Virus record (IMG/VR): IMGVR_UViG_3300025096_000008
Location: 23,183-87,182 of that record
Length of the DNA stretch: 64,000 nucleotides
Strand: one strand, 5' to 3'
Source of the DNA: a virus
Shown here: positions 21,440 to 62,184 of the stretch, one piece after another
How positions within the stretch are numbered: position 1 is the stretch's first letter
Layout of the letters: the number at the start of each line of letters is the position of its first letter
The notes under the pieces: generated by a model
Seen by the model: only the letters and a program-made list of their open reading frames with translations
Told to the model about the DNA's origin: nothing
Databases searched by the model: none
Position numbers and translations under genes: made by a program

Positions 21440-21745
21440 ATGGAGGTATTTGTGAGCGAAGTAAAGATTTCTTTCCGAACATCCCTTAAGGATTTACCGG
21501 GAGATATAAAATTATTGATTTCCGACATAGCTAATAACTTACAGTTGGAAGCCAACAACAGCAGAGCGGCTTCTGACTCTCTATCTCAAGGTAGATGTAG
21601 TCGAACCATCTCATCTCTGGAGGATATGAAGAAAGACATGAAAAAGATAGAATCCAGAATAGAGGACTGTATTTCTATTTTACGGCAATACGAGAGTTAT
21701 ATGACACTTGACACCTCAGAGGCAGAGCCCGATGAAGAGCGGTGA
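21440..21745 (+). CDS. hypothetical protein
   Basis: Downstream of the promoter at 21390-21418; start uncertain. Confidence 0.55.
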   Translation: MEVFVSEVKISFRTSLKDLPGDIKLLISDIANNLQLEANNSRAASDSLSQGRCSRTISSLEDMKKDMKKIESRIEDCISILRQYESYMTLDTSEAEPDEER

Positions 21746-21950
21746 TCTAGTTCATGTACCGTCAAATGTCCTTCTTCTTTCTGATGCCGAAGGTGGTTCG
21801 TTTAAGTTTACCACCGAGCCCACATTGGGAATCGTGACTCGGGAAAGCCTTAGTGACGGAAAGTATTATAAGATTTATTGCCTAGGAAGGGAGTGGACGA
21901 TTCGCCAAGAGTGTGCCTACCCTTTTAGCAAGAAGGAGACGAGATGTTAA
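21732..21950 (+). CDS. GDLV SH3/KOW-like small protein
   Basis: MKSGDLVHV...LGIVT. Confidence 0.6.
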   Translation: MKSGDLVHVPSNVLLLSDAEGGSFKFTTEPTLGIVTRESLSDGKYYKIYCLGREWTIRQECAYPFSKKETRC

Positions 21951-22222
21951 TTGAGCTTGTAGAAGTAGTGGACAGAGGAAAGGGAGTCTACGAAATAAAA
22001 GAGGTCTTTGTAAATCCAGATAGCATAGTGAGTGTCAAGAGGGATGACAATACCAAGAGGCTCCTAGATGAAGGTAAGCTTCCGTGGGATCTCCACAAGC
22101 AGCAATCATTTTCTAGGATCGTGCTTGGAGCTACGGCAGAAGAGACTCTGGTAGTAGTGGGAACCCCAGCACAGGTTATGGAAAAGTGTTATGTTGCAAC
22201 CTCTCGCCTCTTGAAAGGATAG
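21944..22222 (+). CDS. FlbD-like small protein
   Basis: MLIEL...VFVNPDSIVSV...VVGTPAQV. Confidence 0.4.
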   Translation: MLIELVEVVDRGKGVYEIKEVFVNPDSIVSVKRDDNTKRLLDEGKLPWDLHKQQSFSRIVLGATAEETLVVVGTPAQVMEKCYVATSRLLKG

Positions 22223-22225
22223 AAA

Positions 22226-22480
22226 ATGTTTTCATTCTACCATCTGTTTATAAAAGTGGATTGCCCATACTGCCGAGAAGCCATAGAGCTGCTGGAAGAA
22301 CATCAAGAAAGCTATGTGGTATCTGTTGTCGATAAGTGCCAGGGATATCTCAACATGGTGAAAAAGCAATTCGGACACGAGACAGTTCCTGTCATCTTAT
22401 ATTGTAAGAGCGACGGAGCAATGGACTTAGTTGGCGGTGCCCGAGAACTCATTGAATTTCTTGAGACACAGAAAAAATAG
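22226..22480 (+). CDS. glutaredoxin
   Basis: CPYC, TVP, VGG. Confidence 0.88.
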   Translation: MFSFYHLFIKVDCPYCREAIELLEEHQESYVVSVVDKCQGYLNMVKKQFGHETVPVILYCKSDGAMDLVGGARELIEFLETQKK

Positions 22481-22488
22481 GAGCAGCT

Positions 22489-22872
22489 ATGGAAATCCCC
22501 TGTAAATGGAAACCAATCGAGGAGTTCTCATTTAGGAACGAAGAGAAGAAATACGGTAGGTATCACGGCTCTATGTTTTGGAACGTCAAAGGATTCGGCT
22601 TAAAGCGCTGGGTTGTCGGAGGATACCTAGAGGTTGATTATGAGGAGCTAAAGGCAGATGGGCTTACAGAGAGAGAAATAGTCGAGGGATGCTTGGTATA
22701 CTTGAATAGGCCACCACCAAGACAAAAGTTCCAGAGGAAAGAAGGCAAGCCACTTTATGGGTGCCTAGAATACTACAAGCATAAGATCACACCAGCCGGC
22801 ATTGAAGTTCTGGTGATCACAAACGAAAGAAAGAATAAGCGTTTTTGGTCAGAAGGTGCCGTAGTTTCATAG
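22489..22872 (+). CDS. hypothetical protein
   Basis: AGGAG RBS; same operon. Confidence 0.6.
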   Translation: MEIPCKWKPIEEFSFRNEEKKYGRYHGSMFWNVKGFGLKRWVVGGYLEVDYEELKADGLTEREIVEGCLVYLNRPPPRQKFQRKEGKPLYGCLEYYKHKITPAGIEVLVITNERKNKRFWSEGAVVS

Positions 22873-22936
22873 AGAACAGAAATATTGAGAAATAGCTTGA
22901 CAGATTAGAGGCAATATGTTATGATCTAATCTGCTT

Positions 22937-23011
22937 GGACTTGTAGCTCAGCGGTAGAGCGACCCGCTCATAACGGGTTGGTCGTAGGTTCAAATCCTAC
23001 CGGGTCCACCA
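22937..23011 (+). tRNA. tRNA with CAU anticodon, probably Ile2 (lysidine type), otherwise elongator Met
   Basis: Acceptor GGACTTG/CGGGTCC, anticodon arm ACCCG-CTCATAA-CGGGT, TTC loop, encoded CCA; lacks initiator features; promoter at 22897-22925. Confidence 0.92.
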
Positions 23012-23083
23012 CTTGACAGCCACTCTGTGGTGTTTATATTATATCTGTGTCGCCTTCTAGGGGCACACTAACTAAGTCATAAG

Positions 23084-23099: not shown

Positions 23100-23104
23100 A
23101 ACAG

Positions 23105-23545: not shown

Positions 23546-23560
23546 AATTTGGTATGTATA

Positions 23561-25863: not shown

Positions 25864-26142
25864 ATGATGACGGACTTTAAAGATTCGAACATGCGACAGA
25901 AAAAAGTGCTTGACTTTCATGCGGGAGATCTGGTATACTTAAAAAGTGATCTCTCTCTGAGATCGGGAGTTGGGTTGATTTTATCAACAGAATTCAGGAG
26001 TTTTGATATACACGACTTGAGAGATCATAAGGCAGGAAAGTCGTTTTCTGTGCTGCTACCAAAGGTGTATGTTTGGTGGACCCAAGGAGATAAGAAGCTT
26101 TGGATGGACGAGCAAGATCTTTGCTTGTTAGAAAAGAGCTGA
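25864..26142 (+). CDS. GDLV SH3/KOW-like small protein
   Basis: FHAGDLVYL..GVGLIL..VWW. Confidence 0.6.
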   Translation: MMTDFKDSNMRQKKVLDFHAGDLVYLKSDLSLRSGVGLILSTEFRSFDIHDLRDHKAGKSFSVLLPKVYVWWTQGDKKLWMDEQDLCLLEKS

Positions 26143-29499: not shown

Positions 29500-29601
29500 G
29501 TGCTTGATTAATAAGGGACAAAAAAACACTAAAAAAGAGCTTGACAGAGTTGATCTCCTGTGATATGGTATTATATTCACAGGCAAAGAAGGAGCACTAA
29601 T

Positions 29602-30063
29602 ATGCCATATAAGAGCAAATACAGCAAGAACATCAATAAGTTAGTAAAATGGGCGAAAGAAGTCAAGCAGATCACTGTTGTTTTTGCCACAGGTCAGGTA
29701 GATAGATACATGCCAGAAGATAGGCTAATCATAATCAACGAAACTCAGAACGGTGAAAATCAGCTCTACACTCTCCTGCACGAAGTGGGTCACTCAATGA
29801 ATAGAGAGACCGGTAATCTCGCCTATCGCTATGGCAAATATAAACTGTTAGCTAAATCAGATGAGACAGGCAAGCCCATCAAGTCATATGCCTACAGAGT
29901 CCAACTTCTTGATGAGGAGATGCAGGCATGGAAGAACGGCAAAGAAATTGCCGAAGGTCTTGGAATGAAGCTAGATGAACGGGCATACGAGAACTGTGCC
30001 GCCAAGTGTATTATGTCGTATATCGACTGGGCTGCCGAAAGAGAGTGGAATGCGCCGGCATGA
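29602..30063 (+). CDS. ImmA/IrrE-like HExxH metallopeptidase
   Basis: TLLHEVGH...EEMQAW; own promoter 29541-29569 with an IHF site at 29497-29509. Confidence 0.7.
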   Translation: MPYKSKYSKNINKLVKWAKEVKQITVVFATGQVDRYMPEDRLIIINETQNGENQLYTLLHEVGHSMNRETGNLAYRYGKYKLLAKSDETGKPIKSYAYRVQLLDEEMQAWKNGKEIAEGLGMKLDERAYENCAAKCIMSYIDWAAEREWNAPA

Positions 30064-30295
30064 TTTCCATCCAGGAGATCTGATCGAGGACCGGAAAACC
30101 GGGCTAATCGGTCTTGTCTATGGAGTCCATCAGGATCCGTACAACATCACCAAGGGACGAGGATATTTCTATGTCTGGTGGATGGATAACTCCAGAGGAT
30201 ACAGAAAGAGCCTGGTCTCACCCACAGATAAGCGAGTGAGACAACTGGGTAAGAAGCTTAAAGAGAAGAAAGTGGTGAGGAACAATGTCGTTTGA
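30050..30295 (+). CDS. GDLV SH3/KOW-like small protein
   Basis: FHPGDLIED..IGLV..VWW. Confidence 0.6.
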   Translation: MRRHDFHPGDLIEDRKTGLIGLVYGVHQDPYNITKGRGYFYVWWMDNSRGYRKSLVSPTDKRVRQLGKKLKEKKVVRNNVV

Positions 30296-31541: not shown

Positions 31542-33601
31542 ATGACAGGCGAGTTCAGCGGATCAGTTGATGTGGGCGACGAATTTGCCAGCGATAAGAT
31601 GGAAGATTTGGCTTCTCTCATTGCTGACCTCCAAACTGAAGAAGGTGGATTACCACCCCTAACGGAAGCCTCAACAATCTTACAGGACTATATGGATGCC
31701 TGGGTGATGTGGAGCCAGCAAGCAGGACAGCCAGGCTCTCGAACATATTATGAATATCTTTTTCAAGCGGTGGCAACCCGTGCCATCTTTATAACGAGGA
31801 ACACACAATGAAAGGAAAGTATTATGATGACTAACGATTGGACAGAGTTCGATATTTATTTCGAGGAAGAGGAAGCAAAGAGCGAAGAAGAAAAGCAGAA
31901 GGAACTCGACGCTCTCTATGAAACTCCGCCAGAAGATATTACACTGGACAAAGAAAAGCTAATGAACATCACGAAGAGGGCTCTCGCGAAAGAGGAAAGC
32001 AAGAAGAGCTTTGTATCCCCAGAACAACAGGAAGAGGTAAACGCTCACGCCCGCCAAGTTGCTTATAATATTTTAGAATGGGTTTATTTATCCGCCGAAG
32101 CCGGCGAGTGGAGCTATAGACATGATATGACGAAGCTCCCTCGGGCATACCTGATGCCAACTGTACAAGAGGTGAAGAGGAATCTTTTAAATACCTTTGT
32201 TCGTTACTCAGATTCGGAATCCAATCGATGGATCGAAGTAAGTTGGATAAAATCAAATGAAGTGTGAGCGGAGGGGAGGAGCCATAGGCTTTGAGAAAGT
32301 TTATAACAACGATCTACTGGTCGAATGTCGTAAAGAACTTTTGGCAGTCGGTGTTAAGGTAGAGACAGAAATCATCAGAGAGAGGTATTTTGTTACATCG
32401 AGGATCGTTGGGTCCAGCCGACGCTATACCATACGAGCAATTGAGTCTGCCACTCAAAGCATATCTATTTTTGGTATGAGTGATGGGTTCTCAACAAGGA
32501 GATCGGCACTAAAATGGTTGATAGGAGACAAGCAAAAATAGGTCCGGTGATATATTGTTACTCGATACTGGCACTCGGTGCCACCTTTATTGTACTAAGA
32601 GCCATTAAGGAGCTTGGAAGATGTCAAAGAAGAAGAGAGAAATGGTAATTTATACCAGCCCCACTGAAGTGATTGTTGGACCGCTGTCCGCAGAGCTAGA
32701 CTTAATAGAAAATTGCTTTACTTTGCCAGGCAGGAAGATAAAAGATTTTAAGAGAGAGATACATCCCATGAGTGATATGGGCGACATGTTCAAGAAAGCG
32801 AATGAAGCAAGGCGAGCACAAGGAGGTATCGATGAATAGTGTTACTGTGGTATTAGAACATCCAGCCTATTCAGATCTGAGCTCTGTAATACTACAAGAG
32901 CATTTTGAGCTTAGATATTTAGCACTAAGGTGCTATCACGAATTATCAAACATATATACAGAAGGACACTATAGTGTGGTTATCACTGAAGACGGCAAGC
33001 AATTTAGTCTGGATTCACATAACGACATACTTTGCCGAATGAGAGAAGAGGTGAAATGATTCAGCAATGGAGGGAATTATAAGATGGCAGGAATAGAAAA
33101 TGTATAATCTTTACACATGCAACTCTGAACTAATTTTACAAGAGCTTGGCAGTTCTATTGAGGCTATCGATAGGAAACTACGATTCGACAGAGACCCAGA
33201 ACTTATTGGGCAGCGAGAAGAATTGTATGATTTGAGAGAATGGGTTGAGTCGTACATGACACCTCGAAAGAGAGAGTCATCAAGTATGATCTATTATGAT
33301 GCCAGATATCACAAAACCTGGCGAGCATTAAATGGGAGGAAATCAGATGAAAATTTTTGAAAAAATGATCGGTATGAAAAAGAGATGTGAGGTGGGAATA
33401 TCAGTCCTTCTTCTTGCTGTTAGCCTTTTTTGTTTATTCATTTGTCTTGAGGGTGTGGCTATGATAGTCAGGCATGATGTCGCTACAGCGATAAATGTCC
33501 TTTTTCTAGGGCTATTGCTCTCGATAAATGGTGCAGCAGTGTTTTTCAATCTTACGAGGCTATCGAATGCCATCCGAGAGAGACTCAAGAGCTATGACTA
33601 G
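31542..33601 (+). other. run of about 7 small hypothetical ORFs
   Basis: Abutting or overlapping + strand ORFs, including 31542-31811, 31824-32267, 32257-32541, 32621-32839, 33100-33360 and 33332-33601 (2 TM). Confidence 0.55.
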
Positions 33602-33791
33602 TGGTGATTGGCACCCGGCAGTTGGCGATATGGTTCAAGTAACCCTCCAGAAGATTCCAAGTGTAGGAATGATCATTGACTTACGAGGTGAAGAGATCAT
33701 TGTGAAGGGTGCCTGGTGGCAAGAAGTTTTTAGGAAGGAAGAGGTGACTTACATCCACCCAGAATCTGAAAAGGGAGAAGAAGAATGTTGA
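33594..33791 (+). CDS. GDLV SH3/KOW-like small protein
   Basis: PAVGDMVQV..VGMII. Confidence 0.6.
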   Translation: MTSGDWHPAVGDMVQVTLQKIPSVGMIIDLRGEEIIVKGAWWQEVFRKEEVTYIHPESEKGEEEC

Positions 33792-34012
33792 AGAAATTAT
33801 TTACAAAACACCCAAACGAAGTTGGCGAAACTTACTGGCAGCACTTTCGAGTGGCTTCAAAAATATCGTGGAGAAGCTTTCTTGCTTCGACGACTCAATT
33901 GATTCATGCTATTTTTCCATTCTTCAAGCCTCCTCTCGGAACGGATGTGAATTCTATGAAAAATTTCCTCCAAGAAGTATCTCCTGATACTCGAAAAAAA
34001 AATAACCTATAA
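33785..34012 (+). CDS. DUF6356-like small protein
   Basis: FTKHPNEVGETYWQH...IHAIFPF. Confidence 0.7.
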   Translation: MLKKLFTKHPNEVGETYWQHFRVASKISWRSFLASTTQLIHAIFPFFKPPLGTDVNSMKNFLQEVSPDTRKKNNL

Positions 34013-34307
34013 GCGGGGCGACTTGGTTCAATACTGTCGGCTAACAGCCTACCCAAGAACGCCATGGGTAAAGGTGGGCATTGTGCTAGATAGCTTTGAT
34101 GGAATGTATTCGGAGATCGTAGAAGTCTATTGGTTCGAAGAGCAGAACATAGAGATCATTTCATCACCATGGCTTGAAAAAACAGCCGAAGTGCCTGATA
34201 TTGCTGATGAAAACATAAGTAGCTGAAAAGGTTATACTTTTTTTGGGACGAGATCTGGCTCTTGTAAGTGCCCGATATGTCTGTGTAAAAAAACTGTTAT
34301 TATGTTC

Positions 34308-34370: not shown

Positions 34371-35832
34371 ATGTCACTCAAACTTACAACACTCGGATCA
34401 AACCAAACTGAGATCAAAACAAGCAAACACACTGTCCTGTTTTCATATGAAACCCCAGTAGTGGCTCATACTCACTATGGCAACGGGCATAAGCCTGTGG
34501 TGTTCATCACTAACGGAGCAAATGAGGAAGGCAAGAAGATCCGGACTCGAACCACCTACGGACACATCAATTCTTATGTGAAAGATCTGCCTTCCAACTG
34601 GGAAAGGTTCGATGTCGATCAGGAAGAACTAGAAAACATTTTGGCGAACGGATAAAGCACAATGAAACTGAAACATATGAGCGGCAAGCTTAAGGCATTA
34701 GTTATTCTAGACTTCTTCTTCTGGACTCTCTTCATTCTCGTTTTATTGATAGGAATAAAGGGACTCCACCTCTCGGGCATCCTGGGAATTGATGTGGTCT
34801 GGTGGAACTGGCTAGTGCTTCCTCCATGTGGCGGAGCAACAACAACCTTAGCGGGATTATATCTCGCGAGAAAAGAAGGGATACGATGATGAAACAGGAC
34901 TTCAAAAAAAAGCTAAAAGCACACGACTGGTATTATAGCTATAGTGATGATCACAATGTGTGGGAGCGAGGAAGGCGCCAGCTTCAGAACATTGTGGCAC
35001 TGTACGACAGCACCAACTGCCCTTTTGATCTTGTGGAGCTTCGAAGGTGGGCTACGGGCATGGTCATAGGTCCATTTGCTGAAGAAGGACCAGACGAGTG
35101 GTACCTTCAGCCTCGAAAGTATAAGTGTACTGCCTCTGTCAAGAAAGCAGAGCTACTTACCACCGAGAGGAACCAGGAGATCGAAGTATGGTTCGAATAA
35201 AGGACGACACCATTCCAGAGAGAATCAAAGAATGTCTGACCGTATTTGAGCGGCAAGGGAACTGGAACAGTATCAATATAGCCAAGTCGCTGCTAAGGCA
35301 ACATGCCCAAAAGGGCGAATTGAGCACCAAGCAGACTGCCATGGTTGAGATATGGGAAAGGGATTATACCCTCCCAGACGACAACTGGAAAGACGAATAT
35401 TCAGCTTCGGAACAAGAGAGGAAATTGTTTGAAAAGGCAGTTAGCTATTTTGATAGCACCAACTCGCTTTACTATTACAGGCAACGAATCGCCTACTGTA
35501 AAGACCGAGAGGGGTACATCCCAACCCGCCGAGACTTCAATAGGATGACCCAGAATAAGTATTTTGTTCGATGGCTGGAAGCTTCTGATGCAGAGCCCAA
35601 GTTTAGTCTGGGCGACTTGGTTGAGTCGCGCCAAGGCAGCGGCTCTCGTTGGAATCTAAGGGGGCTGCAATTTGTGATCACCAAAGTGATGGACGAGGTT
35701 GACCCTTGTAAAGGGGGAAGGTGGTATGCCGGGTATTCCATAACGGGAGAGGTGAAATACGGAAATCGGCTTTTCGAAAGCCGACGATTCACGAAGTTCA
35801 GAGAGAAAGAAGTAAAGACTTTTAGAAAGTGA
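34371..35832 (+). other. operon of hypothetical ORFs, the last with a C-terminal GDLV domain
   Basis: 34371-34655 (LFSYETPV), 34662-34889 (TM), ORF ending 35200 (AHDWYYSYSDD), 35188-35832 (FSLGDLV). Confidence 0.6.
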
Positions 35833-44740: not shown

Positions 44741-44762
44741 GGAACGAAAGGAGAAAAGAACA

Positions 44763-45218: not shown

Positions 45219-45395
45219 AATTCTCCCTGATATGAAGCTGTTTGATATCTTACAGCAGGAAACTGTTACAGTCATAGCTGTTAATGAAGAGGTGTGTCCG
45301 AAGATATTCACTGTCATAGATTCAGCCGGTTGCCGATACAATTTATCTGAGGATGATTCTCACGGATTACAGGCAACAACGAAAGGATACACAAG

Positions 45396-47807: not shown

Positions 47808-48348
47808 GCAGAGAGAGTGTACGAGGTGTGAAGCTTCTTATATTCCGAATTCGAATAGCCAAAAATATTGCAAAGAATGTGCCCCAAAGGCATATAAAGA
47901 AGGCAATAAACGATACCGCCAGGATAACCCAGGGAAGGTCAAAGCCATCTATGCGCAAGTCTACCAAGAAAAGAAAGAGCAGGATATTGCTTGCCTGTAC
48001 TCAATATTAAACAAGATGACTGATCGGGGCTATATCGGCGAGACGGTAGGATTTGAAAGGAGAGTATATGAACACAAAAAGAACCTCCAGGGAGGACGGC
48101 ACCCCAACTCACTCATCCAAAAAGACTACGACAAGTATGGTGCTGATGCTTTTGAATTCTCGATGGTAAAAGAAATAAATAAAGAAGACTTCCAGAGCGA
48201 GAAGGAGCTGAAAGAGTGCCTAAAAGTAGAGGAAGCAATGCTGGTATTAGAGGAAGTAGAGGAAGGCAAAGAGTTGTATAACTTGGCATTAAATCTACCC
48301 ATAACATCCATACCGGCTGTCCTTAGAGGTAGAGAAACATTTAGGTAA
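47797..48348 (+). CDS. GIY-YIG endonuclease with an N-terminal zinc ribbon
   Basis: CTRC..CKEC; LYSI.N....RGYIGET..FERR, H.N..IQ.DY.KYG, LYN. Confidence 0.85.
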   Translation: MPYKQRECTRCEASYIPNSNSQKYCKECAPKAYKEGNKRYRQDNPGKVKAIYAQVYQEKKEQDIACLYSILNKMTDRGYIGETVGFERRVYEHKKNLQGGRHPNSLIQKDYDKYGADAFEFSMVKEINKEDFQSEKELKECLKVEEAMLVLEEVEEGKELYNLALNLPITSIPAVLRGRETFR

Positions 48349-49125: not shown

Positions 49126-49242
49126 TGTGATTTATATCACAGATCTAGTGCTTTTTCTTGATTAAAAGCTTGACAGATAGAGATCACTCTGCTACAGTAG
49201 ATCATATAGAGAGATCACTTTTAGGAAAGGCAGATCACCATG
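49126..49242 (+). promoter_or_regulatory. promoter with a CRP-type box and four AGATCA elements
   Basis: TGTGA-N6-TCACA at 49126-49141; TTGACA 49170, 17 bp, TACAGT; AGATCA at 49181, 49199, 49212 and 49232. Confidence 0.75.
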
Positions 49243-51561
49243 ACCAAGCACCTCACCAGCACCCAGCTCAGTGTTCAAGAGCTCCTTGTACTACGATTCG
49301 CGGCACGAGATGTAACCCGATTTGTTGAACACCTCGACGACGAGATGCTAGGCGAGTTGTATGCTGCCGTCAAGGCGGAGCGAGATGAGCGCTCATGCTT
49401 CAACGACGACGACATATGTTATGCTCCCCTCTTCGAGGAGTCTAGCTATTACGACACCAACGAGGAGAGCAACTTGGATTGGAACCAGAAGCGAGGAGAC
49501 CTATAATGGATATCAAAGTAGGATCATTAGTGAAGAACAAGAACACCCAAGAGATTGGTCTAGTAACTAAGCTTGGCGATTTGGTAGCAATAGTTAACTA
49601 TTGGGATATCGTCGATGGCAGGATTCAACGGCAAGACCAATCTGGGCATGAGCTCATTGCTAGCCTAGAACACTTTCACGATTACGACTTAACTGTTTAA
49701 CTTAAGAAGAAGGATATAAGATTATGAAACACTACACAGAAAACACTAGCATTATGGGAACACCTTTACCTCCGAGCAAAGACGAGAATGAATGGGTACT
49801 ATCTAATCCAGAGTATAATATGGGTGATGATACTAACCTACTTAAATTTGCCGTCCATCTAGAACAGCTAGCTAGCCTAGGATTATAAGAACATGCTTAA
49901 GCCAGGCGATATCGTAAGACATGTATATAAGAACTGGACCGGCATTGTGGAGAGTGTGATAGATACATACTGGTACCATGTCAAGTGGACACGAGCCGAC
50001 GGGCGCGAGCTAGGTCGAGCACACTGGAGCACTTCACACCTAGCACAATCACTTAGTCTTATCACAAAGGAAGACTTTATCTAGCTATGAACGACAGTTC
50101 GCCCAGTAACCATCGCCCACTAAACCCTAGGATCAATCCAATGACTAACTATGAACGACATCAGGGAATCTATACATACAAAGCTATTGAGAAAGGCACC
50201 GACGTGCTTGTTCTGGATCCCCAGTCAGACAGATACCAGTGGCTAGGCAAAGCAGCAGAGTCATGGATACCCATGACCCGATGGGAGAGTGTTAGCGTTA
50301 AGCTAGCATTCGAAGACGGGACCACCGAGGAGTATCAACGGCGAACTGTTCGCCCAGTAACCATCACCCACTAAACCCTAGGATCAATACAATGACAAAG
50401 CTGACCGAAGCAATGAAAGCAAAATGGCAAGAACAACGAGCAGAGCGAGCGGCTGAGATAGCAGCATGGAAGCGACCTATCCCATGGCGGCTAGCTAACG
50501 TTGCCGAAATGGAGCGGTATGATCGAGAAGATGAACAAGGTCGCCCAGTACGAAAGGTAGCAACAACAATATGATTAATGACGAAACACTAGAGAGCATC
50601 AAGCCGCACCAATTGGTGGTATCTACCGATGGTGCACCCGCCAAGATAGGCGTTGTATTGGAAGTCGGCGAAGACGGGTGCTGCCAAGTATGGTGGGCAT
50701 GGACCAAAGACTGGTCCTTCTCCGTGGAAGATACAGCCAACTTGGCTCGATTCTAGAAAGGATAAATAATGTCTTACTTCAGTAACTATGATACAACAAC
50801 AAAGCGGACCATTATCAATTGTGCCGCTAAGGATATTATCAATAATGAGGTCCACCTCAGAACAGAGATGTTAGACCAGCTACTCGAAGCACTCTTACAC
50901 GAGAGAAACCATAGAGATAGAGAAGAGCGAGAGGCTCGGGACTTCGAACGGCATGCCTACCTCTACAAGTGGATCAACGAAACTCCCGAGGAGAAATAAA
51001 ACAATGTTACAAGTAACACTAAGAATGTTGTACACCCCAGAGAATCATACCTTTCCTGCTGATCTTAAGATTCTTATCGAGGCATATAAAAAGGATTTAG
51101 AGCATGCCGTATCTCATAGGGATCAGCATGGCGGCAAAGGCAAAACCTATGACCGCTACAAGCAGAACATCTTAGATGCAAACAATGCCATCTATAACTT
51201 AGAGAAGCAGTTAGCTCTCTACCAACCTTATGTAACACCCGATGGTGAAATTTACCAAGAACCCACCCAACAAGGAGAATAACATATGCCCTGGTCTTAT
51301 AATGCAATCGATTATCAAGGAAACAAGATTGGATCCATTTTTGGACTACTCACTTTTATGAGCGAGTATAGAAATTTAAATGATGAACAAAAGGAAGAGT
51401 TAGGTAAGCTCAAGCAACGATACTACCTACACAAGTACATCACACCATCAGACATCAAGATGGTATTCAGTATGATTGAGGATACCAAGCAGCTTAAGAA
51501 GAAGCAAGCTAAGACAAAGAAGAAGCCAGCAACTAAACCCAAGGAAGCTAGCAAGTCATGA
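49240..51561 (+). other. cluster of very small ORFs, including SH3-like 49506-49700, 49893-50084 and 50571-50756
   Basis: Tightly packed 60-100 aa ORFs with RBSs. Confidence 0.6.
50097..50396 (+). repeat. 49-bp direct repeat pair flanking one ORF
   Basis: 50097-50145 and 50348-50396, 2 mismatches. Confidence 0.92.
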
Positions 51562-52165: not shown

Positions 52166-52447
52166 ATGGGAACACCAGCACCGATTAATGTAGGCGACTT
52201 AGTGGTTCATGTTCGGATGGATGTGAATGGTGTCGTGCTAAGCAAGAAGAATCAAACATTAACAGTGTATAGAATGTATTGGCTTACCGATACGGGTTGG
52301 ATGAAACAGGCACCCATGTATGTAACGAGAGATGAGATAATATTAGCCGAAGAGCTAACACTTAAAGAGAAAAATGATTGCTTTAACAAGGGGCTCTGTG
52401 GAAGATGCCTTCAGTTAGGCGGAGGATGTAGAAATGAAACAAGATAA
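52166..52447 (+). CDS. GDLV SH3/KOW-like small protein
   Basis: INVGDLVVH..GVVL..MYW. Confidence 0.6.
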   Translation: MGTPAPINVGDLVVHVRMDVNGVVLSKKNQTLTVYRMYWLTDTGWMKQAPMYVTRDEIILAEELTLKEKNDCFNKGLCGRCLQLGGGCRNETR

Positions 52448-52871: not shown

Positions 52872-53283
52872 GTGGAAGTCGGTGACTTAGTAATATTTCA
52901 GCATGGGTCGTATACAAAGCGACACCTAGGTGTGGGTATAATCTTCAAGAAGAGGGAAATGGAGAAAGGCGAGAACCTGTATTTCAAGGAAGGTGTGTTA
53001 GAGGTGTATTGGTCAGCCACTGGCGCCAAGATGGTCTTTCCCGTCAACTCAAGCATGCTAGAACCATGTTTCGTTGTGGAGGGCTCTACGGATGCCGAAG
53101 CCGATTGATGTAGGTTCACTGGTAAAGTTCAAGAATGATTACAACATTCGGTGTGGCTATGGCATTGTCGTAGTTTCCGGAAGCCTTAACTCGGAAATTT
53201 ATTGGCTTAGTGATAACAAAACAGAGACTACATTTACCATGGTATTAGAGGAAGTGAAGTGGATTGACTTACCAGAGCTGTAA
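52872..53283 (+). other. two tandem GDLV SH3-like ORFs (52872-53108 and 53092-53283)
   Basis: MEVGDLV..GVGII..VYW; IDVGSLV..GYGIV..IYW. Confidence 0.6.
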
Positions 53284-53406
53284 GTAGCCGAAAAATAAGC
53301 ACTTTGTAAGTAGTTAGAAAATAAGCAGAATAAAGTGTGGATCTGCTGACTGTAAGTGCCTAAAAAAATTGGCGAAAAAAAATGTCGTTTTTCGTTGATT
53401 ATGTTC

Positions 53407-53480
53407 TTGACAGGGAGAGATCACTATGCTACAGTGATCTATATACAGAGAGATCACTTTAAGAAAGGGCAGATCACATG
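53407..53480 (+). promoter_or_regulatory. promoter homologous to the 49170 promoter, with four GATC elements
   Basis: TTGACA-gggagagatcactatgc-TACAGT...gagagatcacttt...gcagatcac-ATG. Confidence 0.8.
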
Positions 53481-56400
53481 AAAGATCGCATGAAAATCAA
53501 ACCAATACTTGATTACTACTGGACTGGCGAACACACTCTAGATAGTGATAAAGTTTATGATGTCGAGCTAGCAACAAACCAACCGGGTTGGGAGAAGCAT
53601 GGTCTAGTCTTTGTTGAGGGCTATTTGTTAACTTCAGAAGAATATGAGGTGGTAGGATGAAGGAAGTTTTCAAAAGTCTTTTTGAAGAAGAATGTTACAC
53701 ATTTTTAGATAACAATTCCCATATCAATGGGGTTGTTGAAAAAGATGTTTTTTCGGGTTATTTCAAAGTTTTAGACTTAGGCTAGGAAAAGAATAATGGA
53801 AAATCTAGAAGTTGGTGATTTAGTATTCTTTCACCGTGAGGTAGATGGTGAGCCTGGTGCCGGCATTAAGAACGGTAGAGCCTGGAAAGGTATTATCACT
53901 GGTCCGGTATCAGAAGAAAAGAAGGACTGTGCTGACTGGGAAGTTAAGTGGCTATTCGATACCGATGGTAACAACTCTGAACACAATTGTGCTCATTGGA
54001 GTTGGGAACTTGTAAAGGCAGAGGATCAAGGCAAGCCATGGGAACGGCTAGACACATATGTTGCCAATGGTGGTTTAATGAAAGAACTAGAAGCACAGTT
54101 ATTTGGCGATAACCCAATAGAAGGAGAATAATGCTAGCAACCCATAGAGCAAAGAAGGATGCCTCAAGGCGGACCAAGAACCGGTTTAGAGAACATACCC
54201 TAGTGTTTGTTAAGAAACTACCAGTATGGTCAGACACTTGGATCAAGAACGAAATCGATAGTGTATTTAGAGGCACCAGCATTTTGTTCGAGAGTGTAGA
54301 GAAGGATGAAAAAGGTAAGTTTGCTAAGTGGTGTGGATGGATTCCCGCTAGTGAAGTTGAGAGGATAGAAGAATGACCGTATTGAACTACCATAAACAAC
54401 CTGGGACAGTCTTCCCCATAGAAGAGGCTAAGAGTTTAGTGTTGGAAAACATCCGATGGGAAACAGATGGCTGGGATTATAGAATCGAAACAGTCAACAC
54501 TGATTCCAGAGGAAACAACACCACGGCTAAAGTGAGAGTATACGATGACGAAAATATATTCGTTGGATACCTATAGGCGAATCAAGGTCCGTACAGTGGA
54601 CCTCACAGAGATGCCGGATGATTTGCTGATGCTGCTTCTGAATGGATCCATGTCCTATAGTGACGCAGCTAAGGCATACCCCGGTCCCATCTGTACCATC
54701 ATAGAGGAGCCAGCCGATAAAGCAGCACCTCCTCCATTGCCGGAAGATGCCGACTGTGATGAGTAGCTGAAACATGCTATTAGCCGCCAAAGTGATTGTT
54801 GTATTTTGTTTAACATACGATTTGCTAACACTATTTGATATTTACCAGAAAAGAGAACGATAATGATCAACACCAAGAAGAAGAAGCCCGATATGGTGAC
54901 AGTGCTGCTAACACAGCAAGAGATCCAAGCATTATATTTTACCCTAGAAGCGGCAATGAATAAGAGCGGCGTTGTGAGAGAAGAACACCATATGCCCATT
55001 AACTGGATCCTTAATTGTATCGAGGAAGAAGTGTCCCAATGAGAATCCGAGTTAACACAATCATCTTACTAGCACTCCTGGCTCTCTCAATTGGACTCTG
55101 TAGCTCTTGTGTTGTCGTTGTGGATGATACACCGGCTGAAAGCCGGGAGGGCACACAGGTCATCGTGAAGCATTCTGATACTGATGAAAGCTGTGACGAA
55201 GTACCTCACGAGCACCGAGCTCAGCGGTGTGATGTATATGAGGGAAGAGATTGTTGTGAGTGGTATATTGGTGATGGATGTTTTGAGAAGTATTGCTTCT
55301 ATTATCACAATTGCGAATGGCATTGGTACGGCACGACTTGTGAGGTTCAAGAATGACAAACAAATGGAAGCATCCTGCACCACCACATGATTTTGAAATT
55401 GGTGATCTCGTGGTTGAGTCTGGGTATGATTTTGGCAAAGGCTGTGGTGTAGTGGTAGACTTAGCTAATACTAGCCCACACTTTGCCGGCGGAACCTATC
55501 GAATGGGCACAATACAAATCTTTTGGACTGGTGACGAGTACGAGGCTGCTGGTATGGACGGCAAAGATCCTGGTGTCTATTGGGCTCTCCCTCATAAGAT
55601 AAAGAAACTAATCAAAGCAGAGGAACAAAATGATGGATGAGAATAAACTAAACCGTGGTCGCTGGCCAATAGAACATCTTATAACTAGCGGTGTTGAGGC
55701 GAAGCGGAAGCGAGCCGAAGAAGAAATAGCTGGCTATGACATGTCTAAAGCAAGAAAAAATCTTGCCGATTTTGACAATGTGCTTTGGTGCATACGAAAC
55801 CTGAAAAAAAATTATGCCGACGAAAAAAATATCGTCGAGGCTTGTCGTCTAATTTCTATCGTCTATCGATGGAATCTAACACACTGGCGAGCCGGAACTC
55901 AACACTGGAGGTTGATCTAATGGAAGAGCATAATAGAAAAAATGATAAGTTCTGGGTGGTGAGCAAGCCGAGCAAGACATGGGATTTAGATTTCTTATCA
56001 AACTATCTCACTATCGAAGACATATGTTTTTGTACTTGTTATCGAGGGCTTATGACCCAAACTTTGGGTGGACTCACTCCGTCAGATATAGTTGGTGTTT
56101 TTGTGAGCGAAAAACCGGCTAAAGTATGTGCAGAACAGATTCTAAAACAATGTATTATCGAAAAAACCTTAGAAGAAAGCAAGAGCAAGTTATGATTATG
56201 AAAGTTGGAGATTTGGTAGAAGTTTCTATTGACTGGAGAGATGAGATTGGTGTTATCGTTGGCTTCGACTCTGAAAAGGATCCTGTAATTAAAGTTGATG
56301 ATGGCTGCATTGTTGATTACCGAGAGAATGTAAGGGTGTTAAATGAAAAAAGGCAATATCTATAAGTTCAGTTATATCTCGGAAAACTCAGAGCTAAATT

Positions 56401-57019
56401 ACAAGAATATCATGTTCCTTGGTGAAGAGTGGAGCTATCCCGAAGGTGGCTTCGCTGTAAGAAATTATAAAGTTTTAATACTTGGAGAAATTTCGCCTGT
56501 CACAATAGACAAGAGCCTAGTTAGGTATATGACACCTGTGTAGGTGTGTAAGAAGAACAGGGAGCACCATGGCACAATGGGAAATGAAGAAGATACATAT
56601 ATTACTATAAATGATGTGAGACCTGGTGATTTCGTATGTATTGTTCCACGAACATGGTGGTCTGCTCTTCGTGGAGAATATAAGATCGAATTCGGTACCA
56701 TAGTATCAAAGCCGGAAGATCTAAGGGGTGGTGTAAGAGTGTATTCATCTTCCAGAGGAACATGGATTGTTTTCCCACACCAGTGGTATTTTAGGAAGTT
56801 AGACACATGAAAACAGGCGATTTAGTGGAGTGGGATGGTTTATTTACTGAGTATGGTAAGACATATATGTCTAAACAATATCTCGGGCTTGGAATCATAA
56901 TTGACGATACTAGCTATCGAGAAACTGTCATTGTCCAGTGGCTTAATTCTGGGTGGAAGCTTCGCTGCGTAAAGGAGTCTCTCAGGATAGCGACTAAAGA
57001 ACAGCAAGACTTCCTGTAG
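53478..57019 (+). other. operon of small ORFs, including GDLV-type 53796-54131, 55353-55640, 56192-56365, 56343-56543, 56544-56810, 56807-57019 and a Cys-rich lipoprotein 55039-55356
   Basis: Repeated [KE]xGD[LF]V starts; LCSSC lipobox-like end of a signal peptide. Confidence 0.6.
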
Positions 57020-57073: not shown

Positions 57074-58003
57074 ATGGAGGATTCCTTGACAGATGTGAGC
57101 CAAAGATTTAAGGACTATGGTGAAGAGCATTGCTGGCAGTATGAAATCCGTCTTCGGAATCTAGAAGAGGATATATCGCTAGCTGGGCTTAAGCCAGGAG
57201 ATGCTGAGTCTCTTCATGTTTCCGATTTCAAATTTGAATATGTTGATAAGTCGGAAAAAGATAAGTGTGCAGAGATAAGTGACTTCATAAAGAAGCACGA
57301 ATGGCTCGGCAAGCTTCCGAACCGTCCTACACAACGATTTACAGCCCGGCTCAAGGAAGGTAATGTCCTTGCTGGGGTTATCATTATGGCTGTTCCAAAT
57401 ACCTTCTCTCACCTCCTTGGGAAAGAGAATATCGGCATCGAAAAGTTAATCTCTCGTGGCGCCTGTATATCATGGTCGCCTAAGAGCCTAGGTTCTTGGC
57501 TCGTAACGAAGTCTATCAAGTGGATGGTACAGAATACTGATTTTCGATACTTCACAGCATACTCCGATCCGGAAGCAAAAGAATTAGGGACAATCTATCA
57601 AGCTTGTAACTTTATTTATCTTGGCAAAGGCTCCGGAGTAGCAAAGCAGTATTTCGATCCGGAGAATCCCAAGCAGGGGTGGTTCAGCGGCAGAGAATTC
57701 AGGAAGAAATCAAAGTATTATAGATATGCCAAGGAGGTGGGTATCAGCAAAGAACAATGGGCACTATGGATGAAGAAGTATAGCCCAGACTGGACATTGG
57801 TTCCTCCAGCGGTAAAGACTATGGTAAAGGAAAGAGAGAGAGTGTATCGAGACAGTTGCCATGTTCGAGAGGTAGTTTCGAAGCATAAATATTGTTATAT
57901 CCTCGGGAAAACAAAAGCCGAGACAAAGAGCTTGAGAAAATTATTTATCGAGAAAAATCCAGATAAAATTAACCTTCCTTATCCTAAGAATCGTGGAGAG
58001 TGA
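57074..58003 (+). CDS. Mom-family (GNAT fold) DNA modification protein
   Basis: FIKKHEW, LAGVI, LISR, SWLV..SIK, AYSDP...GTIYQACNFIYLG. Confidence 0.75.
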   Translation: MEDSLTDVSQRFKDYGEEHCWQYEIRLRNLEEDISLAGLKPGDAESLHVSDFKFEYVDKSEKDKCAEISDFIKKHEWLGKLPNRPTQRFTARLKEGNVLAGVIIMAVPNTFSHLLGKENIGIEKLISRGACISWSPKSLGSWLVTKSIKWMVQNTDFRYFTAYSDPEAKELGTIYQACNFIYLGKGSGVAKQYFDPENPKQGWFSGREFRKKSKYYRYAKEVGISKEQWALWMKKYSPDWTLVPPAVKTMVKERERVYRDSCHVREVVSKHKYCYILGKTKAETKSLRKLFIEKNPDKINLPYPKNRGE

Positions 58004-58194
58004 GAATGAAAAGCGGTGATTTAGTAAAGTGTAGAGATGACGAAAACTACCTTTTTGGAATGGGCTTGGTTGTCAAAGAAGAGACAAGAATGGTTAAGGT
58101 GCTATGGCTCTCTGGGTTCGCCGATGATGGCTTCGGCAGAATTGATGATCCGGCTGACTGGAACTGGAAATGCAACCTGGAGCTAGCGAAATGA
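58000..58194 (+). CDS. GDLV SH3/KOW-like small protein
   Basis: MKSGDLVKC..GMGLVV..VLW..LEL. Confidence 0.65.
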   Translation: MRMKSGDLVKCRDDENYLFGMGLVVKEETRMVKVLWLSGFADDGFGRIDDPADWNWKCNLELAK

Positions 58195-58385
58195 AAAAGC
58201 AGAAAAAGAAAAAGCAGAAAAAGAAAAAGCGGAAGAAAAGGAAGAGGAAAATGAAAAACAGAAATCTCCTTGTTAAGAATATGATCTGTAAACCAAAGAA
58301 CAGTGGAGCACATAAAGATAAGAAGAAAGAGGCTAGCAAAAAGGAGTGTCGTAGTAAACCTACGAGCCATAGCCAGGGAGAATAA
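58191..58385 (+). CDS. very basic small protein
   Basis: Poly-Lys N-terminus from a 15-bp tandem repeat; SGAHKDKKK. Confidence 0.5.
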   Translation: MKKQKKKKQKKKKRKKRKRKMKNRNLLVKNMICKPKNSGAHKDKKKEASKKECRSKPTSHSQGE

Positions 58386-59484: not shown

Positions 59485-59814
59485 ATGAAAATAACAAAAA
59501 GCCAATTGAAGCAAATTGTCAAAGAAGAAATATCCCGAGTGTTTGATGAGAGCGATGTTCGAATCGATGAATTCGGCTTGGGAAGGTCTATCAAAGGTGC
59601 CGCAGCCTCGCTCAAGGCGAAAGGCATGGATATGGTCAAGGGAACCGGTAAGTTGGCTCAGACAACCCAGGCACAAAAACAGATTAAGATGATGGTTAAG
59701 GATATTATAAAATCCGGAGATACCCAAGAAGCAAAGTCGATGGCTAATCATTTGAAAGCATTGACAGACGAGCTGGCGGCTTTCGCTGGAAAAGACGACA
59801 TGCCTTATCAGTAG
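59485..59814 (+). CDS. putative internal head protein
   Basis: MKITKSQLKQIVKEEI N-terminus; late motif at 59406. Confidence 0.55.
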   Translation: MKITKSQLKQIVKEEISRVFDESDVRIDEFGLGRSIKGAAASLKAKGMDMVKGTGKLAQTTQAQKQIKMMVKDIIKSGDTQEAKSMANHLKALTDELAAFAGKDDMPYQ

Positions 59815-59823
59815 GAGAAAAAA

Positions 59824-60297
59824 ATGAAAATAACAGAAAAAGTACTTCGTAAGATGATTAGAGAAGAAGTAGAGGTCGGCGAAACGGCTGAAGAAGCATA
59901 TGAAGCCAACTTGAACGATGAGAAAATCATCCGTTTTTTCGAAGAAGGTATTAACCAAGAAGAGCAGCTTGCAGAAATTAGCTCGCTGGATGAGGCGGCA
60001 TTACTAGCTCAGATCCCTAGGCTCGTTTCCGCTCTTAAGAGCAACAAAATGATTCAAGCTTTGATAGGTAAGATCGCAGAAGATCCTAAAGCTGCTGCTC
60101 AGTTTCTTTCCACTATGGCACAAATGGTCGGCATCGATACTGATAAGACTTTTACCGGTAGACAGAAATCAGTAGCTAAGAGCCTTGACAATACCACTCC
60201 CCAATCCGAGCCGGCGGCAGACGATAAAGACGGATTAGTTGAAGGCTTAATTAGAGAAGTGCTGAATGAAATATTCGGTAATAAAGATAAAAAATAA
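59824..60297 (+). CDS. putative internal head protein
   Basis: MKITEKVLRKMIREEV N-terminus; LIREVLNE near the C-terminus. Confidence 0.55.
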   Translation: MKITEKVLRKMIREEVEVGETAEEAYEANLNDEKIIRFFEEGINQEEQLAEISSLDEAALLAQIPRLVSALKSNKMIQALIGKIAEDPKAAAQFLSTMAQMVGIDTDKTFTGRQKSVAKSLDNTTPQSEPAADDKDGLVEGLIREVLNEIFGNKDKK

Positions 60298-60324
60298 TAT
60301 TGTATAATGGAATAAATAATAGAT

Positions 60325-60358
60325 AAAAGAAAGGGTTTCGTCCGAAACCCTTTCTTTT
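60325..60358. terminator. perfect 16-bp hairpin terminator
   Basis: AAAAGAAAGGGTTTCG-TC-CGAAACCCTTTCTTTT. Confidence 0.9.
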
Positions 60359-60554
60359 TATAATTAAGATTGGAGGTGATATTATGGAAAAACATACTAC
60401 CGCTTTGGCAATCTCTTTCGGAGGTGCTCTGGTCGTAACTCTTGTTTGTGCATTCTTTTTTGGGGCGATTAATCATCCTGGACACTGTGGAGCTAGCAAT
60501 CCTAATGATTTAGACTACGATGCCTTGTTTTCTGATGCTGGGTATGAATAATCG

Positions 60555-61124
60555 ATGAGTGTGCTGGACGAGAAGGTTCTTGTGTTAGATAAGGGGTATC
60601 AGCCCGTACATGTCGTCAGTGCTAAAAATGCTATCTATCTGCTTTTCCGAGAGGTAGGCAAAGTTATCGATGAAGACTGGAATGTACACTCCCTAGAGGA
60701 GTGGATAGAGAAGAATAACGGCATTGAATGTGAGAAGCCGGTAAGAACTCCAAGATATAGTTTTCCAGTACCAAACATAGTTTTATTAAGATTTTATGTG
60801 AAAAAAAACCTTCCCATGCTTAAGTGCAATAAGAGCAACATTTGTCTGAGAGATAACTGGCGATGTGGATATTGCGATAAGAAAATGAGGGAGAGGGATT
60901 GTACAATTGATCACATTGTCCCTGTCTCACTCGGAGGTATAACGGAGTGGACAAATGTCGTAATCTCCTGTTCGAAATGCAACAATAGGAAAGGCAATCG
61001 GACAATAGAGGAATCTGGTTTGGAGCTTAAGACAGACATATATATCCCTAGTTGGTCAAAGCAAATTCTAAAAAGATACATTGGTAATGATAGCTATCAT
61101 CCATGGAAATCTTTCTTGAGGTAG
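60555..61124 (+). CDS. HNH endonuclease
   Basis: VLVLD..YQPV, RDNWRCGYC, TIDHIVP.S.GG, W.NVV.SC..CN.RKG. Confidence 0.92.
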   Translation: MSVLDEKVLVLDKGYQPVHVVSAKNAIYLLFREVGKVIDEDWNVHSLEEWIEKNNGIECEKPVRTPRYSFPVPNIVLLRFYVKKNLPMLKCNKSNICLRDNWRCGYCDKKMRERDCTIDHIVPVSLGGITEWTNVVISCSKCNNRKGNRTIEESGLELKTDIYIPSWSKQILKRYIGNDSYHPWKSFLR

Positions 61125-61153
61125 TTAGCTGCTGATTAGCCTACTTATTTTTG

Positions 61154-62184
61154 ATGAGAAACGGAGATTTAGTTGTTTTCAAGTATTTCAAAAATAGCTA
61201 TAAAAATGAAAACTATTTAGGTATAATAGTAAGCACCCAAACTGATATCTTGATTCCCACTGAATGGGGATATGATAAGGTGGATCTAGTTCTCGTTAAC
61301 TGGTTCGATCCAGAAGGCGCCGAGGATCTACCTTACCACACTATCGGGCTTAATGGAGAGAGGTGGTATCATAAGGGTCAATTTTACCTCGTAGGAGAAT
61401 AGTATGGCAGCATTTAAAGTAGGAGATTGGGTAATGGTAACTCCGTCTGCAGACTACCATTGGGAGTATTGGACAATTACCCACACAGAATTTGCCGGTG
61501 AGTATGCTGAGATTTTGGCTATTCAGCCAGATCAAGTAGATCCAAGTGTCGAGTATTATTATCTCAGGCTCAATGCACTTGGCACGGAGCAACCACTTGA
61601 AGCATGGTTCTTGCCTCGTCATGTAATTCTCGCCAAGAAGGCAGATGTCTATTCGAGCAATAACCTCAAGAAAGCCTGTGATGAACTACAGGAGTGGGAG
61701 ACCAAGAAGAGGAAGTTGGTCGATGATGCACTGAGACATGTCTTTGGAAATCCGAAGAAGGAAGTTCGACCACTACGGAAAAGGGTAGGATTGGCTAGCA
61801 GTGACGAGAGGAGTGCCGCCACACTTTTTGACGATGAGTGGGAAGAAGAAACAATAGAGATAGATATAAATCATATTGTGCCGGCAGACTACGAAGGCTG
61901 GGATTGAGATGGAACTCAGTAAGGATACATCATATAAATCTGGCGACCTAGTTTATTGTGATGTCTTGGAAGTTGCCAAGCACGAATGGGAGTTTGGCAC
62001 AACTTATGGTAGGTTAAGAGGCATAGAATCTATCACAGATATGTGGCCGTGGATTATGTGTATTGTTATAGAGGTTCGAAAAACATTAAAGGTAGCAAAG
62101 CTCTATATTCCATTCCTCGGCATTACGATAAGGGCACCGTTTTCTGGTATTAGAGCTTACGAAGGGAGAGGTACAAAGGAATGA
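61154..62184 (+). other. three tandem GDLV-type ORFs (61154-61402, 61404-61907, 61909-62184)
   Basis: MRNGDLV, FKVGDWV, YKSGDLV. Confidence 0.6.

Follow-up and report, generated by a model that had tools for sequence, protein, structure and literature searches.

Does a single phage genome carry more than 20 copies of one small protein fold, or does a short motif recur by chance among its many small genes? The question is raised by a 64,000-nucleotide (nt) stretch (hereafter the window) of IMG/VR record IMGVR_UViG_3300025096_000008, an uncultured, marine tailed phage; the window covers positions 23183-87182 of the 87,182-bp record. An earlier note had pointed to about 25 open reading frames (ORFs, named here by their start positions) with a shared K-x-G-D-L-V first strand, and had proposed more than 20 SH3/KOW-like 'microproteins' with hypervariable loops on a common scaffold. 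We find a true paralogous family of small stand-alone proteins of 57-119 amino acids (aa), in which 15 ORFs are firm members, one (47226) is probable and six are possible, while one further ORF (61404) has the same fold only and two are unsupported (Table 1). The family is therefore as large as the earlier note claimed only at its upper estimate of about 23 members, 16 being firm or probable, and at these lengths the products are small proteins rather than microproteins.

Motif statistics and profile searches

An ORF that begins with the N-terminal pattern, either as described or in a looser form, is present at each of the coordinates in question. The short form G[DS][LIWMF][VI] is found in 18 out of 100 small + strand genes (<=170 aa) as compared to 2.0 +/- 1.4 (maximum 7) in 500 residue shuffles, and the strict form GD[LIWMF]V in 15 of the 100 genes as compared to 0.5 in the shuffles. 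The motif thus occurs far above the chance frequency in small ORFs that would have spoken against a family.

We seeded an iterated hidden Markov model (HMM) with ten obvious members and ran it on 1591 six-frame segments of the 87-kb genome. The search converged on 15 ORFs at E<0.05 and included no off-frame or minus-strand segment; because about 90% of the six-frame segments are non-coding frames, they act as built-in decoys. In leave-one-out searches, 11 of these 15 ORFs rank first among ~1577 non-training segments (E 1.7e-7 to 0.024) and the remaining four rank 3-7. Using a profile made from distant external proteins only, we were able to retrieve 14 window ORFs at E<0.01, including 47226. 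An enlarged profile, to which relatives were added, matches window segments at E<10 in the 15 core ORFs plus 47226, 30050, 50571, 61909, 33594 and 35188, with no decoy frames. Membership was judged by a match to a profile built without the sequence itself; such a match is found for 15 ORFs (leave-one-out) and for 14 (external-only profile), it is missing for 44576, 56343 and 61404, and it is borderline for 30050, 33594, 50571, 56544, 61909 and the C-terminal domain of 35188. Aligning single doubtful ORFs to the family with hhalign gave uninformative probabilities (0.2-23%). Upstream of the window, where the structural genes lie, the HMM searches found no family member.

Could the motif still be a chance or compositional artefact of small ORFs that do not belong to one family? 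Pairwise identities are only 20-35%, and several of the claimed ORFs match in the first strand alone. Against this stand the excess over the shuffles, the lack of decoy frames, the recovery of left-out members, and two structure models with the same fold (see below). An artefact is refuted for the 15-16 core members and possible for 44576, 56343 and 61909; as an account of the whole set it is extremely improbable. There are no DNA repeats among the members, as the earlier note had observed, and because identities are this low and such repeats are missing, the members are old duplicates or imports.

Predicted fold and conserved residues

The product of ORF 58000 (64 aa) was modelled with AlphaFold2 (AF2) from a 37-row alignment of paralogs and external relatives, with a predicted local distance difference test score (pLDDT) of 83.6 and a predicted template modelling score (pTM) of 0.71. 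The model has five strands (residues 8-11, 21-27, 31-36, 53-56 and 60-62). Compared with 48,161 PDB representatives using VIA-align, it has almost only SH3-like barrels among its top matches, including Spt5 KOW (Z 7.3, root-mean-square deviation (rmsd) 2.9, 55 aligned residues), the Hpy99I N-terminal domain (Z 7.0), KOW6-7 (Z 6.9) and NusG (Z 6.1), as well as PWWP, UBE2O SH3, YfhH, NdhS, R67 DHFR and Tudor. Foldseek retrieved ribosomal KOW proteins, PsaE, NdhS, OapB and Spt5 with the same model, and Rpp29 is also among the fold matches. A sequence-profile search of the PDB gave PsaE as the best match, at a non-significant E of 0.2.

The second model is that of 61404 (AF2 with nine homologs), in which a five-strand barrel (residues 1-78, pLDDT ~80) precedes a long helix and an acidic tail that is disordered. 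The best match of its N-terminal domain is a Mind bomb MIB repeat (Z 9.2, rmsd 2.0, 65 aligned residues), and PetP, NdhS and NusG are also matched (Z 8-9.2). On the basis of these models, the members are predicted to be five-stranded SH3-like beta-barrels. The single SH3/KOW-like scaffold that had been proposed holds up here, since a core member and the most divergent of the claimed ORFs are both modelled as five-stranded barrels and not as unrelated folds.

The alignments show two invariant glycines and, in the first strand, an L and a V that hardly vary; conservation extends to the hydrophobic residues in strands 2, 3 and 5 and to two Trp. Readers of the Tudor/chromo 'royal family' have an aromatic cage that binds methylated Lys or Arg, a feature to which these two Trp may be relevant. 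The conserved K-x-G-D-L-V, G-[ILV]-[IV], V-x-W, W and L sit on the strands that form the barrel. Among paralogs the loop between strands 1 and 2 ranges from 8 to 25 residues, that between strands 2 and 3 from ~3 to ~27, and that between strands 3 and 4 from 2 to ~20, so that copies differ by as much as ~25 residues in a loop. Trp makes up 3.4% of the residues of members and 1.9% in other small genes.

No Pfam or PHROGs family was found for any member, the PHROGs scan covering ten members at E<0.05. None of the 37 sequences of the family matches Pfam KOW (PF00467) with E allowed up to 5, let alone at its gathering score; the only KOW-related match is that of 50571 to KOW6_SPT5 (E 0.014, 15.3 bits as compared to a cut-off of 27). 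The gathering scores of the Pfam SH3 families (SH3_1/2/3/4, bacterial SH3) are likewise not reached and no window member matches them, the sub-threshold matches (SH3_2, E 0.0055; SH3-B_UBE2O, E 0.012-0.021) being confined to external relatives. DUF2158/YodC (PF09926) stays below its gathering score, with one of the 37 sequences at E 0.11.

Fold class and charge bear on the idea that the members are LSm/KOW-like RNA-binding regulators, which would act on phage or host transcripts or on the transcription-translation machinery and alter mRNA stability or elongation. Such a role has been suggested for GoF, MotB.1 and Frd.2, early LSm-like proteins of phage T4, and for NusG-type KOW domains, and the earlier note had considered NusG-like binding of RNA or RNA polymerase. 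The fold class is common to Spt5/NusG KOW domains, ribosomal KOW proteins, OapB and Rpp29, some members are basic, and T4 GoF(D25Y) stabilises an mRNA (PMC12152347). Most members are acidic, however (median isoelectric point (pI) 5.0; pI <=5.2 in 12 of 16), none reaches the Pfam KOW or LSM thresholds, and all stand alone without an NGN domain; in the same paper, wild-type GoF and MotB.1 are described as having no effect on the reporter. The lack of a Pfam KOW match, the stand-alone form without NGN and the mostly acidic charge argue weakly against general nucleic-acid binding, and the charge weakly favors protein partners over nucleic acid. We consider an RNA-regulatory role unlikely.

Selection between close relatives

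A metagenome relative (L008) is colinear with the window from 44.3 to 62.7 kb at 87-97% DNA identity (~93%), which allowed us to compare presence and absence as well as the ratio of nonsynonymous to synonymous substitution rates (dN/dS), as the earlier note had suggested. Of the 13 family members in the shared region, 12 have orthologs in L008. Pooled over the family, dN/dS (Nei-Gojobori) comes to 0.205, as compared to 0.225 for the remaining genes of the region, and amino-acid differences between orthologs amount to 6.7% in the strands and 9.1% elsewhere (Fisher p=0.22). With a ratio like that of their neighbors and no excess in the loops, the members are under purifying selection, and loop hypervariability is not measurable on this time scale. 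By these sequence comparisons, the genes are real, translated and kept by purifying selection, and the diversity among the paralogs is old. The claim of hypervariable loops therefore holds for loop lengths among paralogs, which vary widely, and fails as a claim of ongoing diversification.

These results also bear on a counter-defence repertoire, the role that the earlier note had put first, in which every copy would block its own host immune protein. The genes are small and accessory, are probably expressed early, and are gained or lost between close relatives (see below); they adjoin DNA-modification genes (an N6/N4 methylase and a Mom-like protein), and small single-domain inhibitors are typical of counter-defence (general knowledge, also discussed in PMC12487901). 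On the other hand, matches to known anti-defence proteins are lacking for all members, the sequences give no sign of diversifying selection, and both strains compared stably retain 12 of the 13 members. We regard this repertoire as improbable as a description of the family.

Distribution in relatives and databases

A HMMER scan of 1.84 billion representative proteins gave 36 matches at E<1e-3. They include ~10 orthologs from close relatives, ~20 proteins of 50-75 aa with the same pattern, five two-domain tandem forms, and three large repeat proteins (one from a dinoflagellate, and one, P0020, named YodC/DUF2158 by IMG). Related IMG/VR phages were found via their Mom-like gene. One of them (G004) has a stretch of 10.8 kb with at least 11 members, including four in direct succession; a diverged one (G002) contains orthologs of 21732, 25864, 30050, 33594 and 34002 plus a two-domain form (5 or more members). 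Positional orthologs of these five ORFs are retained even by phages in which a conserved protein shows only ~65-77% identity. Searching IMG/VR with the 58000 protein found no relative. ESM Atlas and BFVD gave only unnamed viral proteins, those in BFVD being uncharacterised phage proteins at E 3e-3 or weaker, and a literature keyword search for phage SH3-like paralog families returned nothing on target.

Gene turnover and promoter cassettes

The 58000 gene is the member that is wholly absent from L008. The gap has a copy of AATGAAAA at either end (58005 and 58190), where L008 retains a single one; the unit amounts to 185 bp (58005-58197 region), with 8-nt repeats at two successive start codons. 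The absence together with the repeat at both junctions marks a gain or loss of the whole gene at the start-codon repeat, exact from one start codon to the next. External proteins (42-57% identity) are closer to 58000 than are its paralogs in the window.

Near-identical, conserved cassettes of the form GCTTGACA-N17-TATAAT/TACAGT are found between genes at no fewer than eight positions (22895, 29539, 34307, 39483, 43150, 44526, 49168 and 53406). They punctuate the small-gene region that holds the members, heading small-gene operons, and look like host sigma-70 promoters. Two of them were delimited in full (Table 1), and both cross-match between the window and L008. Directly after 53477, the end of the second, the two sequences diverge, and 53478-53787 (with two small genes, 53478-53785) is replaced by unrelated DNA in L008. 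Conserved host-type promoter cassettes suggest early transcription by the host polymerase, and early transcription of the members is likely on this ground. A terminator scan gave no + strand site; no dedicated fold of the cassettes was run.

This arrangement resembles the promoter early stem-loop (PeSL) cassettes and the modular shuffling in hyperplastic regions of T4-type phages (PMC2839356, PMC4122927). In both cases repeated host-type promoter cassettes head small-gene units, and here, as in PeSL-bordered regions, a repeated early-type promoter borders a segment that differs between close relatives, replacement beginning at the second cassette. Unlike PeSL exchange, the clean single-gene indel of 58000 uses the 8-nt start-codon repeat and not a promoter cassette.

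Such turnover could mean that the members are mostly dispensable cassette passengers, an easily folding mini-domain that spreads by recombination at gene junctions and promoter cassettes, persists where phage genomes are plastic and does little that is specific in any one copy. The whole-gene indel at the start-codon repeat, the gene swap just behind a repeated promoter cassette, and the fact that the fold is the commonest phage-only structural cluster (PMC12487901) are what one would expect of passengers. A dN/dS of ~0.2 means, however, that each copy is kept by selection, and the five orthologs that persist in the ~65-77% identical phages also speak against dispensability. This explanation is quite improbable.

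A barrel ORF without a start codon at a run of A

ORF 34002, a firm member, lacks an ATG, GTG or TTG codon ahead of the GDLV strand. The reading frame is open from 33960 onwards and lies +1 to that of the preceding DUF6356 gene, whose 3' end contains a run of nine A (A9) at 33994-34002. In the diverged relative G002, the same gene pair meets at a run of ten A (A10), and the barrel frame is -1; in the window and G002 alike, a run of 8 or 11 A would fuse both ORFs. A9 is kept exactly in three independent runs (contigs ~96% identical), and four out of five substitutions in the 34002 frame of strain variants are synonymous, the fifth changing Phe to Leu. The retention of A9 and the mostly synonymous changes argue that the frame is translated and that the length of the run is not an assembly slip. 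The simplest reading would be transcriptional slippage or ribosomal frameshifting that gives a DUF6356-barrel fusion, in which the DUF6356 protein is the probable N-terminal partner of 34002 after slippage; a non-canonical start of 34002 is the alternative.

Proposed role

Taken together, we favor with moderate confidence an old SH3-like paralog family, probably early, in which each copy is a partner-specific putative binding module. Members would probably be made early by the host polymerase from sigma-70-type promoters and would most likely act as single-domain binding modules; through its loops, each copy would bind a partner of its own, from host or phage, while the cell is taken over. The members are gained and lost as whole-gene units.

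Several observations weigh against this explanation. Only two of the ~25 ORFs (58000 and 61404) were modelled with AF2, and small barrels commonly give fold Z-scores of 6-9, which show the fold class only, not a function. The basic members (30050, pI 10.2; 56544, pI 8.7; 52166, pI 8.4) could bind nucleic acid. Neither dN/dS nor the comparison of loops with strands gives a sign of an arms race between close relatives. The timing is deduced from promoter consensus alone, and a generic promoter scan is overall not above shuffles (39 found as compared to 43.5 expected), with only the repeated cassettes standing out.

More speculatively, the members may form a modular set of target-specific inhibitors or adaptors of host (possibly defence) proteins, whose specificities are exchanged by whole-gene swaps between marine phages and of which at least 34002 is made only as a DUF6356 fusion by programmed A9/A10 slippage. 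We rate this extended scenario as doubtful; if it were true, slippage at 34002 would be a regulated way to attach a barrel to another module.

Members and neighboring genes

Table 1. Barrel-family ORFs, the DUF6356 gene and the two delimited promoter cassettes, in window coordinates (LOO, leave-one-out search).
Feature	Position	Strand	Status	Length (aa)	Details
21732	21732..21950	+	firm	72	HMM E 1e-9; LOO rank 1
25864	25864..26142	+	firm	92	long strand 2-3 loop; LOO rank 1, E 1e-4
30050	30050..30295	+	possible	81	basic; HMM E 0.38; hhalign 16% over 42 columns
33594	33594..33791	+	possible	65	HMM E 2.7; G002 ortholog E 0.0044
DUF6356 gene	33785..34012	+			Pfam PF19883, E 6e-17; 3' end holds the A9 run
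34002	34002..34226	+	firm		HMM E 3e-12
35188 C-terminal domain	35596..35832	+	possible		in a 214-235 aa protein (ORF 35125/35188-35832)
46491	46491..46850	+	firm	119	domain is the C-terminal 70 aa; external-only HMM E 2.8e-8
47226	47226..47579	+	probable	117	strand 1 without GD; external-only HMM E 3.7e-4; large search E 0.0045
promoter cassette	49161..49238	+			~78 bp; TTGACA-17-TACAGT with upstream TG; GAGATCAC motifs; repeat families D3, D4, D6, D9 and promoter scan
49506	49506..49700	+	firm	64	LOO rank 1; HMM E 3.6e-14 as member
49893	49893..50084	+	firm	63	weakest of core; LOO rank 7, E 1.4; ortholog P0026
50571	50571..50756	+	possible	61	without GD; strands 2-4 match; HMM E 0.28-0.55
52166	52166..52447	+	firm	93	Cys-rich C-terminal tail; LOO rank 1; ortholog P0001; dN/dS 0.10
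52872	52872..53108	+	firm	78	17-nt overlap with 53092; LOO rank 1; external HMM E 2.6e-6
53092	53092..53283	+	firm	63	LOO rank 1, E 1.7e-7
second promoter cassette copy	53398..53477	+			76-89% alike to the first; repeat analysis and promoter scan
53796	53796..54131	+	firm	111	C-terminal extension; LOO rank 3, E 0.033; ortholog P0003
55353	55353..55640	+	firm	95	LOO rank 3; external HMM E 1.9e-5; dN/dS 0.07
56192	56192..56365	+	firm	57	first of four consecutive small genes; LOO rank 1, E 1.1e-5
56544	56544..56810	+	possible	88	hhalign family A4 vs A2, probability 44%, 45 columns in register
56807	56807..57019	+	firm	70	LOO rank 1; external HMM E 6e-7
58000	58000..58194	+	firm	64	AF2-modelled member
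61154	61154..61402	+	firm	82	LOO rank 1
61404	61404..61907	+	same fold, no sequence support	167	N-terminal 78 aa SH3-like barrel
61909	61909..62184	+	possible	91	KSGDLV strand alone matches; HMM E 1.7-2.2; hhalign 11 columns

Orthologs of 21732 lie at the same position in three related loci (L002, L004 and L006), between the GroEL module and a glutaredoxin gene, and the ortholog of 25864 (L002_19350) matches the HMM at E 9e-10. The L008 ortholog of 46491 is 96% identical, and 53796 differs from its ortholog by an indel in the strand 1-2 loop. ORF 49893 reaches E 3e-8 in the enlarged profile, which itself contains 49893 and its ortholog P0026. For the C-terminal domain of 35188, aligning family A5 with A2 by hhalign gave a probability of 47% with 49 columns in register (HMM E 8), whereas for 61404 only the first 13 residues align with the family.

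The possible member 30050 is flanked by an M78-like peptidase gene and a DUF2201/VWA gene, and its G002 ortholog matches the HMM at E 0.056. These genes lie in a module at 28399-31460 (MoxR-type AAA ATPase, M78-like peptidase, 30050, DUF2201 metallopeptidase/VWA), whose order is identical in G002.

Two ORFs are unsupported as members. The first, 44576, has a weak Tudor_RapA match (E 0.077) and belongs to a separate mini-family of two small paralogs (44555-44740 and 45208-45399, ~39% identity). L008 lacks the region 44752-45378, with a 151-aa gene (44763-45218) and the larger part of 45208-45399. A GroES-like protein had been guessed at 45396-45662 from a GDIVV motif; Pfam gave no support, and this ORF is not a barrel-family member either. 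The second, 56343 (56343-56543, 66 aa, G-N-I-Y-K-F start), has a homolog in G004 (L047, reverse complement, 8353-8640), which likewise lies directly before a run of four barrel genes; it may represent a sister family or a conserved partner of the barrels.

All long ORFs of the window are on the + strand. Identified genes include GroEL (19495-21060), an N6/N4 DNA methylase, a Mom-like protein, a cytidylyltransferase-like protein, GIY-YIG and HNH endonucleases, a VanY peptidase and a MoxR-type AAA/VWA module, and there are two tRNAs. INPHARED contains no close phage (megablast of 13.5 kb matched only a tRNA), and the public runs that contain DNA of this phage are marine and seawater metagenomes. 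The Mom-like gene (57074-58003) adjoins GroEL in seven out of seven related IMG/VR loci (L001-L007); here the two are 36 kb apart, which indicates a large rearrangement or a different genome permutation.

A 651-aa Cys-rich protein (23881-25836), conserved in G002, contains at least six MopE-type 'putative metal-binding' repeats (CDGxDNDCDGxxDE, Pfam E 2e-31) and a weak VWA domain. The MopE-type motif is typical of Myxococcota/Bdellovibrionota-like bacteria, and this protein may be a hint to the host. The GIY-YIG endonuclease gene (47791-48348) is absent from L008, with flanks that are 97% identical, and is probably a mobile homing endonuclease; the HNH endonuclease (60555-61124) has an unusually high dS (0.50) as compared to L008. 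A 55-nt direct repeat (50094-50148 and 50345-50399, 93% identity) brackets a 95-aa gene (50087-50374). The repeat comprises the start codon with its ribosome-binding region and the last part of the gene before it, which suggests a recently duplicated cassette or the scar of an insertion.

Comparison with known systems and significance

A close parallel comes from the Viral AlphaFold Database, in which SH3/Tudor-like barrels account for the largest of the structural clusters confined to bacterial viruses, and for the fourth and fifth largest as well (PMC12487901). Like the members described here, these are small stand-alone barrels without assigned function; unlike them, they are structure clusters across RefSeq phages and not one sequence family (the two were compared by description only), and the paper describes no expansion to 16-23 copies inside one 87-kb genome. 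T4 offers another parallel in GoF, MotB.1 and Frd.2, an LSm-like fold family of Tevenvirinae for which an effect on RNA is reported only for mutant GoF (PMC12152347). They too are very diverged small early proteins of one genome in which the barrel is recognisable mainly by structure, but they number three as compared to at least 16 here, and have other parts besides a barrel at the N terminus. For the ten members scanned against PHROGs at E<0.05, no sequence relation to the T4 LSm-like proteins was found.

Among cellular proteins, the KOW domains of NusG and Spt5, which are linked to an NGN domain and bind ribosomal protein S10, Rho or RNA polymerase, share the five-stranded SH3-like barrel and the G-D-x-V first strand (Spt5 KOW, Z 7.3; NusG C-terminal domains, Z 5.8-8.0), whereas the members do not match the Pfam model, lack NGN, are mostly acidic, and have a V-x-W and a second W that lie outside the KOW signature. 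PsaE, NdhS and PetP are stand-alone SH3-like proteins of 55-70 aa that dock onto a large complex, and the latter two are among the top fold matches; they differ in being single-copy cellular genes, the E-values are not significant, and there is no evidence of a photosynthetic host. The eukaryotic SH3-type repeats of MIB/HERC2, CPH and UBE2O, and bacterial YodC/DUF2158, have the same G-D-x-V ... G-x-V ... V-x-W style of sequence, but occur as repeats inside large proteins or as single bacterial genes and not as phage paralog sets. The family is thus uncatalogued yet of an already recognised kind.

In this 87-kb phage, 16-23 of ~150 genes (11-15%) encode one fold. Since the same fold makes up the largest phage-only clusters of the Viral AlphaFold Database, the role of these barrels is a common, uncharacterised part of phage biology. 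To this the window adds a statistically tested list of members, purifying rather than diversifying selection, an exact gain or loss of a whole gene, and a candidate slippage-dependent fusion, the last two of which provide the most useful new handles.

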